Assembly (NCBI RefSeq): GCF_013167455.1
Contig: NZ_CP038328.1
Reading direction: 5' to 3' (one strand)
Origin: Escherichia coli O157:H7
GTDB lineage: Bacteria > Pseudomonadota > Gammaproteobacteria > Enterobacterales > Enterobacteriaceae
Length of the DNA: 64,000 bases
The position numbers were made by a program. Shown here piece after piece: positions 14,901 through 17,900 of this stretch. The stretch's first letter is position 1. Every line of letters begins with the position of its first letter.

Positions 14901-17900
14901 TATCACCACGCGGGAGGAATTAACCGAGGCCAGTAATGAACTGTTCTCTTTGATTGCCAGCGGTGTGATTAAGGTCGATGTCGCCGAGCAGCAGAAATAT
15001 CCGCTGAAGGATGCGCAGCGTGCGCATGAGATTCTGGAAAGCCGCGCGACGCAAGGTTCCAGCCTGTTGATTCCATAAAAGAAATAGGGCTTCCACCTGG
15101 GAAGCCCTTTCTTTTTATAGTTCGGCTGTATGTAGGGTACAGCACGATGAATCTGTTAGAGGCGCAATAGTGACAGATTTGATTATCAATTCCTATTTTG
15201 TTCTAAGGATAAAACCTTAGGTTGTGATCATCCGCACAATCCCTTAGTAACGCCAGCGGTCATAACGCTGATATTTCGGCACTTTTGGTGCTTTAATCGC
15301 CTTAATAACCCACACCACCGCAATCGCCAGGAGTAACCACGGCAGCAACTTAATCATCAATGCCAGCATACCGCCGAGGAACATAATGGCCGTCGCCACA
15401 ACCAGCGCGGCGATAATGCCCAGCAACGAAACGCCGGTGACCATCAACATGACAAAAAAGCCAATCACAAAAAGTAGTTCCAGCATGATGCTCTCCCAAA
15501 TATGAAATCTCTTGCAGGCATTACAAGAATCATGCCAAAAATAATCTATTGATTTAACAGCAAAACGCCCCGCGACGGTGCGCAGGGCGTGGTGAATTTG
15601 ACTACTTTTTGGTGAAAAGTTAACGCTTATCCGCCACCAGTTTGAGCGCGTGTTCCAGCACGTTAATGTCTGCACCCGCTTTATGGGCATTTTCACTTAA
15701 ATAACGCCGCCACTGCCGCGCGCCAGGAATACCCTGGAACAAGCCCAACATATGCCGGGTAATATGGCCAAGATACGTCCCCTGGCTGAGTTCACGCTCA
15801 ATGTACGGATACATGGCGCGCACTACCGCCACCGGATCGGCATCGGTATCCGAGGAACCAAAGATCTCTCGGTCTACCGCCGCCAGAATACCCGGATTCT
15901 GATACGCTTCGCGCCCGACCATCACGCCATCCATATGTTGCAAATGCGCTTTAGCCTCTTCCAGCGACTTGATACCACCGTTAATCGACATCGTCAGATG
16001 CGGAAAGTCACGCTTCAGTTGATACACACGCGGATAATCGAGCGGCGGGATTTCACGGTTTTCTTTCGGGCTTAACCCCGAAAGCCAGGCTTTACGTGCG
16101 TGGATGATGAACATCTCACACTCGCCTTTGCCGGAAACGGTGTTGATGAAATCGCAGAGAAATTCATAGCTGTCCTGGTCATCGATGCCAATACGCGTTT
16201 TCACCGTCACCGGAATCGACACCACATCGCGCATCGCTTTCACGCAGTCGGCAACCAGCTGCGCATTACCCATCAGACACGCACCAAACATGCCGTTCTG
16301 CACCCGGTCAGACGGGCAGCCGACATTCAGGTTGATCTCATCATATCCACGCGCTTCTGCCAGCTTCGCACACTGCGCCAGCGCCGCCGGATCGCTACCG
16401 CCGAGTTGCAACGCTACCGGATGTTCTTCTTCACTGTACGCCAGGTAATCACCTTTACCGTGAATAATCGCCCCTGTAGTCACCATTTCGGTATACAGCA
16501 ACGTATTGCGGGAAAGCAGACGCAAGAAATAGCGGCAATGTCTGTCCGTCCAGTCGAGCATGGGAGCAATGCTAAACCGAGAATTCCAGTAAACACCAGT
16601 TTTTTCAGGCATCACGCTGGTTTGATTAATTTTTAGTGTTTCATGATTATCGTGCATTTTTGAACATTTCAGGCTATTTTTCTCGCGTTAGGTTCCCGCA
16701 CAGGTTCCCACGTTTTATGGGAACCCGAAATAACGAGGTCGTGTAATGGCGTACTATAACATAGAGAAACGACTAAAATCCGATGGCACACCACGCTATC
16801 GCTGTAATGTGATTATCAAAGAAAAAGGTGTTATCACTTACAGGGAAAGCAAAACATTCCCTAAACATGCTCATGCCAAAACATGGGGCACACAGAAAGT
16901 GATGGAATTAGATCTATATGGCATTCCATCATCAAATGCAGTTGACGGACTTACAGTCCGTGACTTACTACACAAATATTTAAATGACCCAAATGCCGGA
17001 GGTAAAGCAGGCCGTACTAAAAGATATGTGCTGGAACTGCTTATGGATAGTGACATCTCCGCGATCAAACTATCTGAACTGACAGAAAATGACGTAATTG
17101 AACATTGCAGGCTAAGAAACAACGCTGGTGCAGGTCCAGCTACAGTTAGCCACGATGTTAGTTATCTTGGCAGTGTTCTGGATGCTGCCAAACCTGTATA
17201 TGGAATTAATTACACATCAAACCCAGCGAAAAGCGCTCGCCCATATCTACTTAAACTTGGTTTGATTGGTAAATCAAACCGTCGTAATCGTAGACCAGCA
17301 TCTGATGAACTGGACATGCTCATTGAAGGCCTTCAACAACGATCTACTCATAAATGCTCAAAAATTCCGTTCGTTGATATCCTCAAATTTTCTGTGTGGT
17401 CCTGTATGCGGATCGGAGAAGTATGCCGGTTACGATGGGAAGATCTCGACCAGGAACAAAAATCTATACTCGTAAGAGACAGGAAAGATCCACGCAAAAA
17501 GGAAGGCAACCACATGAAAGTAGCCTTGCTTGGGGAAGCCTGGGATATCGTCCAACGACAGCCCAAAAAATCGGAATTCATTTTTCCATATAACAGCACT
17601 TCTGTTACTGCAGGATTTCAGAGGGTAAGAAGCAAATTAGGTATTAAAGATCTGCGATACCATGATTTGCGTAGAGAAGGGGCAAGTCGCTTATTTGAGG
17701 CTGGTTTTAGTATTGAGGAAGTCGCTCAGGTTACAGGGCATCGTTCATTAAACGTGCTATGGCAGGTATATACCGAACTGTATCCGAAATCTTTACATAA
17801 TCGTTTTGAAGAGCTCCAAAGGAGCAGAAATAAGACCTCTTGACACTGTTTATCCATACAGTTAAAAATAATACTGTATACAAACACAGTATAGAGGGAC

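Follow-up and report, generated by a model that had tools for sequence, protein, structure and literature searches.

A lambdoid prophage of about 50 kb has very probably been integrated site-specifically at codons 33-35 of dusA in the Escherichia coli O157:H7 DNA analysed here (64,000 nucleotides (nt) of contig NZ_CP038328.1, assembly GCF_013167455.1; hereafter the window), a size taken from the related genome UTME-1. The prophage would have supplied a surrogate start for dusA, and its integration would involve arm-type sites bound by its integrase. The dusA gene is an open reading frame (ORF) of 345 aa at 15620-16657 on the minus strand. The gene for the dusA-associated tyrosine integrase, int, lies at 16746-17843 on the plus strand (365 aa; assigned from the ORF, Pfam, PHROG and homologues). 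A preliminary description of this locus, made from the sequence alone, had placed the integrase gene divergent from dusA and 89 bp away; the divergent arrangement stands, but the spacer is 88 bp (16658-16745), 89 being the start-to-start distance. The left flank of dusA retains the K-12 order (pspG, qorA, dnaB, alr, tyrB). To the right of int are found a dinI-like gene, effector genes and then lambdoid phage genes, from tail fibre to replication and immunity.

The chimeric structure of dusA was revealed by alignment with the prophage-free K-12-type strain. The first 96 nt of the gene (32 codons; 16562-16657, minus strand), referred to as dusA′, agree with K-12 at 77 positions (80%), and nt 105-1038 (15620-16553, minus strand) agree at 918 of 934 (98%). 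In the protein, 10 of the 32 N-terminal residues are changed and none of the 313 that follow. No similarity to K-12 is seen upstream of the start codon. The N-terminal coding sequence is thus not that of prophage-free strains, and a sharp homology breakpoint is found at nt 97-104, inside the first ~100 bp of dusA to which the attL crossover had been assigned in the preliminary description. Replacement of the dusA 5′ end by the element, also proposed there, is borne out by free-phage genomes, which carry the same 96 nt beside int. The base composition was given correctly, in that about 33% GC had been noted for the first ~60 nt against ~50% for the rest, and the values are 33.3% for nt 1-60 and 54.3% for nt 105-1038. 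It fails as proof of foreign origin, because the corresponding 60 nt of native K-12 dusA are AT-rich too (38.3% GC), and this argument was dropped.

To locate the crossover, attL of the window, attR of UTME-1, attB of K-12 and attP of phages mEp460 and Lys8385Vzw were aligned. The only block identical in all of them is ATGCTCGA (dusA sense), present in attL at 16554-16561 on the minus strand, where it covers dusA nt 97-104 and codons Met33-Leu34-Asp35. The attL sequence follows attP up to ...CC(C/T)ATGCTCGA and attB from there on, and attR follows attB up to ...CCAATGCTCGA and then attP. At the level of sequence, the reciprocal arms match the pattern expected of site-specific integration. The att repeat reads CCCATGCTCGACTGGACGG in attL and CCAATGCTCGATAGGATGT in attR, and the core lies in the conserved ..APM(L/M)D.. 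region of dusA. In mEp460 attP, TGCTCGA is bordered by the inverted repeats TCCTA and TAGGA, which suggests a probable 7-bp overlap with 5-bp core-type inverted repeats. The core agrees with attB TCCAGTCGAGCATGGGAGC published for phage 1720a-02, for which experiments showed insertion 100 bp into dusA at a core of 7 bases as well as excision, attP circles being detected (PMC6328086). The matches of phage genomes, IMG/VR prophages and a plasmid-borne copy to the window all start at 16552-16558, i.e. at the core.

The other end of the prophage, attR, lies beyond the window, as had been proposed, since only a single copy of the dusA 5′ end was found in the 64 kb and its last ORFs (yfdQ-like, yfdR-like, methyltransferase and others) still belong to the early genes of the phage. 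In UTME-1, a 105-nt pseudogene annotated as "tRNA-dihydrouridine synthase, missing C-terminus" is located ~50.2 kb away, beside a DUF2713 gene (yjbM) and zur, both of which are K-12 neighbours of dusA. Judged by its alignment, this pseudogene is the native dusA 5′ end, displaced to the opposite end of the ~50 kb prophage; a native remnant at attR was seen only in this related genome. The attR of the prophage described here would hold a K-12-type dusA remnant of ~105 nt ending in ATGCTCGA, then TAGGATGTACC..., and GGGAGCCTATTGGGAACC beside yjbM and zur.

Two records place the same int-dusA′ module at other junctions. On plasmid pEND_Eco 18005 (NZ_CP126947.1; L004 7981-9286), a 205-kb avian pathogenic E. 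coli plasmid, the module has been joined to a truncated parB, and next to it come baseplate and tail genes from another type of phage. Where ...CTCCTATGC meets GGCACCGGACAG, the junction looks as if the module had integrated at a secondary site similar to the right half of attB. Two module copies are carried by IMGVR_UViG_2558860274: L025 is joined to dusA-like sequence with the core ATGTTAGA and L024 to the unrelated sequence ATGCGTGGCTGGGCGCAC, apparently a secondary site outside dusA.

The dusA-associated integrases were defined by Farrugia et al. 2015 from hits that include six phages, mEp460 being one of them. The family is characterized by RHRH/Y residues, by an element that replaces the dusA 5′ end, by an att repeat of 21 bp and, frequently, by a PrtN homologue (PMC4482086). 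By homology and residue conservation, the window int is a member of this family, as the preliminary description had supposed. It matches Pfam PF00589 (Phage_integrase; E 1.5e-20) and PHROG integrase families. Among 43 aligned homologues, the catalytic residues R222, H306, H332 and Y342 are invariant and R309 nearly so. The protein is identical to the integrase of Lys8385Vzw (100%) and shares 99.7% identity with those of phiSTEC1575-Stx2k and 1720a-02, 98.6% with that of mEp460, and 33.8-36.2% with those of BcepIL02, DC1, BcepMigl, AH2 and H66, which are also among the bacteriophage hits of the founding paper (PMC4482086). The family traits are present here or in the closest relatives: the RHRH residues with the nucleophilic Tyr, an int divergent from the dusA 5′ end, a newly supplied dusA 5′ end, a semi-conserved repeat of ~21 bp around a short core, and homology to named members. 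A PrtN-family gene is found across attP in relatives, namely UTME-1 (L003 30196-30477), mEp460 and EKP1, and the UTME-1 gene, near attR, matches the excisionase family phrog_1300 (1e-39); the equivalent section of the prophage described here falls past the window end. The PrtN-like protein RdfN acts as a directionality factor, and elements of this kind provide dusA with a new promoter (Rivard et al. 2021; PMC8409611). The module, int next to dusA, is present in 727 of 5426 complete E. coli genomes (~1 in 8), including O157:H7 TW14359, O111 11128 and O103 RM8385. The 100% identical module of Lys8385Vzw was deposited as part of a phage genome.

A repeat cluster noted in the preliminary description at 16691-16725, between the dusA′ and int start codons, was confirmed. 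It consists of three 7-nt words in both orientations (unstranded), GGTTCCC at 16691-16697 and 16703-16709 and GGGAACC at 16719-16725. Counting both strands, the window has six copies of GGGAACC against 8.45 expected by chance, and three of the six fall within 35 bp, so that clustering rather than copy number stands out. The suggestion that the cluster could be an integrase or regulatory binding site gains support from comparison, both from copies on the opposite attP arm and from the layout of phage attPs. On the attR side of UTME-1 (the P′ arm), GGGAGCC-TATT-GGGAACC starts 43 nt beyond the core, the pair spanning 43-60 nt, and only one other exact GGGAACC occurs in 49 kb of the relative. An IMG/VR scan with the integrase alignment yielded almost only near-identical E. 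coli prophages, and it was used for footprinting of the arm that faces int (the P arm). In 35 distinct E. coli-type P arms, the outer two words are invariant, the middle one is GGGRNCC and the spacers vary freely.

Diverse attPs were drawn from phage records instead. The layout is kept in twelve further free-phage attPs (YeP1, EKP1, C5a, AS1, BcepIL02, GP4, E220, AH2, RHph_Y3_56_1, Haddon, N133 and PS6), whose integrases range from 69% down to about a third identical to that of the window. Read in the dusA sense, the int start is followed by a spacer of ~90-180 nt with two to four copies of a 7-8-nt word in both orientations, then by a dusA′ mini-ORF ending ..RF[SCA][VI]APM[LM]D and, after 40-60 nt, by two tandem direct copies of the word with 3-nt spacing. 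The word usually differs between phages: it is GGGGTGCT in YeP1, GGTGTAC in EKP1, GGGTGACT in C5a, GGAGCAC in AS1, GTAGCAC in AH2, TTTACCAC in Haddon, GTGTGCA in N133 and GGTACAC in PS6, with GTAGCAA common to BcepIL02, GP4 and E220. With mEp460 added to the twelve, 12 of 13 attPs contain a 7-mer that has two or more copies in the P arm and recurs in the P′ arm. Such a pattern arose in at most 5 of 1000 dinucleotide shuffles for 11 attPs and in 24 of 1000 for C5a. No exact 7-mer of this kind was found in RHph_Y3_56_1, where the shorter words GTCGTAC/GGTACG are visible. Among phages that share GTAGCAA or GTAGCAC, integrase identity is 60-83% in the N-terminal domain and 44-53% elsewhere in the protein.

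A structure model of the integrase (mean predicted local distance difference test score, pLDDT, 86.7) shows a three-stranded sheet and a helix at residues 2-58 (pLDDT 83-91), followed by a floppy linker that leads to a helical core-binding domain and to the catalytic domain. The N-terminal 68 residues folded alone gave an uninformative model (pLDDT 50). Two properties of a heterobivalent integrase are therefore seen, namely repeated words on each attP arm with no relation to the core sequence and, in the model, a separate N-terminal domain of three strands and a helix. Together, the attP comparison and the model point to the words being lambda-type arm sites of the integrase. Farrugia et al. 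2015 (PMC4482086) nowhere use the term "arm", nor Rivard et al. 2021 (PMC8409611) "arm-type", and a full-text literature search, incomplete in its coverage, returned nothing relevant on arm sites of these integrases.

In the mechanism proposed here, the integrase would exchange strands within ATGCTCGA, common to phage attP and chromosomal attB. The attP carries a surrogate dusA start (the 96 nt together with the upstream region), and because it does so, integration would rebuild a full-length dusA of 345 codons at attL, leaving the native 5′ end stranded as a remnant at attR, past the window. The integrase is likely to be heterobivalent like lambda Int, with its N-terminal domain (~aa 1-58) binding the GGGAACC words; the three in the int-dusA′ spacer, on the P arm, and the two on the P′ arm would assemble the intasome. 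The words lie in the stretch expected to hold the divergent promoters of int and dusA′, and since they sit in the spacer upstream of both start codons, integrase occupancy may tune both genes. Excision would need a PrtN/RdfN-family directionality factor, encoded across attP near attR.

A broader statement can be put forward tentatively, at slightly less than even chances: that all dusA-associated integrases share a fixed and so far undescribed attP architecture, made up of the dusA′ mini-ORF and five arm-type sites. Of the five, the int-dusA′ spacer would hold an inverted-plus-two-direct set, and a tandem pair would follow the core at a distance of 40-60 nt. The 7-8-nt word would change with the integrase N-terminal domain, and with the P-arm sites upstream of int and of the surrogate dusA, Int occupancy would couple recombination to the expression of both genes.

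Several observations weigh against integration with arm-site binding as set out above. No named arm-binding domain was detected by Pfam in residues 1-60 of the integrase, and no promoter was detected in the 88-bp spacer by a consensus scan. Both attR and the P′ arm lie outside the window and were read from relatives of this prophage. The prophage may be defective, given its split effector gene and the several structural genes that are frameshifted in the UTME-1 prophage. Finally, in dusA-sense RNA the two inverted words can pair into a stable hairpin.

The last point leads to the main rival to the arm-site reading, which we consider unlikely: that the words, as an RNA hairpin or as the operator of a different regulator, control int or the dusA transcript supplied by the phage. 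The cluster immediately precedes both start codons, and GGTTCCC-N9-GGGAACC folds at -21.1 kcal/mol in dusA-sense RNA (z -3.8; 1 of 200 shuffles as good) and at -14.5 kcal/mol in int-sense RNA. The inverted pair is retained, with an 8-10-nt spacer, in YeP1, EKP1 and AS1, and the A-to-G changes in the middle word of prophages L082 and L085 would preserve G-U pairs in dusA-sense RNA. A hairpin, however, leaves unexplained both the third P-arm copy and the tandem direct copies 43-60 nt beyond the core, which are present in almost every attP examined. There is no U-run after the stem on either strand, and the P′ arm word GGGAGCC varies at the same tolerated position although it has no pairing partner. 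Furthermore, the word tracks the integrase N-terminal domain.

It is more improbable still that the words are bound by a PrtN/RdfN-type directionality factor instead of the integrase. In mEp460-type phages, YeP1, EKP1 and GP4, a PrtN-family gene is found immediately on the other side of attP from int, and in lambda-type systems directionality factors do bind repeated att-arm sites. In those systems, however, such sites are typically on one arm, whereas the words occupy both. The five-site layout is also seen without an annotated PrtN gene beside attP in BcepIL02, E220, AH2 and KpN133, the Haddon excisionase gene is placed elsewhere, and here too the co-variation of the word with the N-terminal domain favours the integrase.

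That ordinary variation between alleles, or gene conversion, accounts for the divergent dusA start, with a prophage merely upstream of dusA, is exceedingly improbable: the AT-rich native start and the evidence from hybrid prophages that dusA 5′ ends do recombine speak for it, but the attP and attR sequences already refute it, since the same 96 nt adjoin int in free-phage genomes, the plasmid-borne dusA′ sits away from any dusA, the related genome retains a K-12-type 5′ end as its attR remnant and the breakpoint coincides with the published core. The hybrids are the IMG/VR prophages L051, L069 and L079, in which dusA′ begins as phage-type sequence and is K-12-type over the ~45 nt that precede the core. 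Their sequences suggest recombination or conversion between phage-borne and native dusA starts.

The remainder of the window was annotated from related records, ORFs, PHROGs and tRNAs. Next to int on the plus strand is the dinI-like gene (17905-18153; phrog_189, E 4.4e-31), which also adjoins int in mEp460, Lys8385Vzw and EKP1 and travels with it in the module. Upstream of it, on the same strand, a promoter-like TTGACA-18-AAAAAT (17840-17869) is overlapped by two LexA-box-like CTGT-N8-ACAG motifs read from the sequence (17846-17861 and 17874-17889), which suggest SOS control of this gene. Two cargo genes were recognized from the UTME-1 annotation and PHROG. An nleG7-like effector gene lies at 18747-19397 (plus strand), and an espS/ibe-like effector gene at 19622-20496 (minus strand) is split into two ORFs of 201 and 77 aa. 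The latter is split in UTME-1 as well, where it is annotated as frameshifted, and is probably a pseudogene.

The lambdoid prophage body extends from 20908 to 64000 on the minus strand and continues past the window end. Its order is tail fibre, lom, J, tail, head, terminase, a lysis cassette with ant, a nanS-p-like esterase, tRNAs and Q, followed by a replication O-like gene (55853-56671), a CI-like repressor gene (58951-59604, plus strand), yfdQ/yfdR and a methyltransferase. The tRNA cluster (49667-49918; Arg-tct, Arg-tcg and a CAT-anticodon tRNA) has the Q-side genes on one side and the nanS-p-like esterase on the other, and the esterase-tRNA-Q arrangement at 45989-53771 is as in Shiga toxin (Stx) phages. 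No stx genes were found within the window. In the lysis cassette, an Ant-type anti-repressor gene (44216-44785) is flanked by the genes for an Rz-like spanin (43595-44062) and the endolysin (45056-45589), and the stretch 43595-45589 is ~0.9 kb longer than its UTME-1 counterpart. Three tandem copies of a 162-nt unit, 89-96% identical, are present in the head-gene region at 35744-36348, a region annotated as a frameshifted portal gene in the related genome.

For the late half, the closest phage is Lys8385Vzw (97% covered, 96.6% identical), and the early half is nearest to Stx2 phages, being 97% identical to Stx2a and Stx2c phages over about two thirds of its length. UTME-1 is 100% identical to the window at 15200-17000 and 98.8% identical over 1-37000, with a mosaic relationship beyond and tRNA coordinates displaced by 936 nt. 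The right end (56000-64000) has its best complete-genome match at 97.7% identity over 94%, with no exact match in the collection. Features annotated only in UTME-1, for example an IS1203 insertion, were kept out of the window annotation. On the other side of dusA, between aphA and tyrB, a segment of 30.5% GC at 9001-10000 resembles a small foreign insert; the equivalent segment of the related genome carries a 119-aa hypothetical ORF (WP_001303754.1).

The integration into dusA is thus correctly identified, ordinary and already known, and the sole addition made here is a comparative map, drawn from attP sequences, of probable arm-type sites in this integrase family. The locus marks one boundary of the prophage and explains the variant DusA N-terminus. 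It also identifies dusA as the occupied site in an attaching-and-effacing-type E. coli, and some Stx phages use the same site. The arm-site map would help to predict which integrases act on which attP, and it raises the question whether integrase binding affects dusA expression in lysogens. Should the fixed architecture hold, integrase occupancy would link recombination to the expression of int and of a host tRNA-modification gene.

Among known systems, the closest are mEp460, Lys8385Vzw, 1720a-02 (Stx2d) and phiSTEC1575-Stx2k, which share the same dusA′ fragment, core, GGGAACC words and dinI-like neighbour. The window prophage differs from them in its mosaic body, with a Lys8385Vzw-like late and an Stx2-like early half, and in its cargo of nleG7-like and split espS/ibe-like effector genes. 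From the dusA-associated family and dusA-specific islands of Farrugia et al. 2015 nothing essential differs, the PrtN homologue being seen here only in relatives. IMEVchUSA3 and other Vibrio dusA elements are mobilizable islands under the IncC activator AcaCD (PMC8409611), whereas the element described here is a lambdoid prophage; Vibrio-island integrases are less than 60% identical to those of non-Vibrio hosts (PMC8409611), a figure that does not include the window Int. Farrugia et al. 2015 (PMC4482086) name the Rci shufflon recombinase as the closest relative that has been characterized, and the mEp460 annotation cites INT_Rci (cd00796). On that authority, the catalytic domains belong to the same tyrosine recombinase subfamily, but Rci inverts shufflon segments, has an extended C-terminus and carries out no attP/attB integration. 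With lambda Int and its attP (P1, P2, P′1-3), the dusA system shares repeated arm words around a short core and tandem direct copies on P′. It shows no detectable similarity to lambda in N-terminal domain sequence, transcription of int leads away from att, tail genes adjoin int, and attP holds a coding surrogate of the target gene, flanked by words to which the integrase would bind as lambda Int does to its arms.

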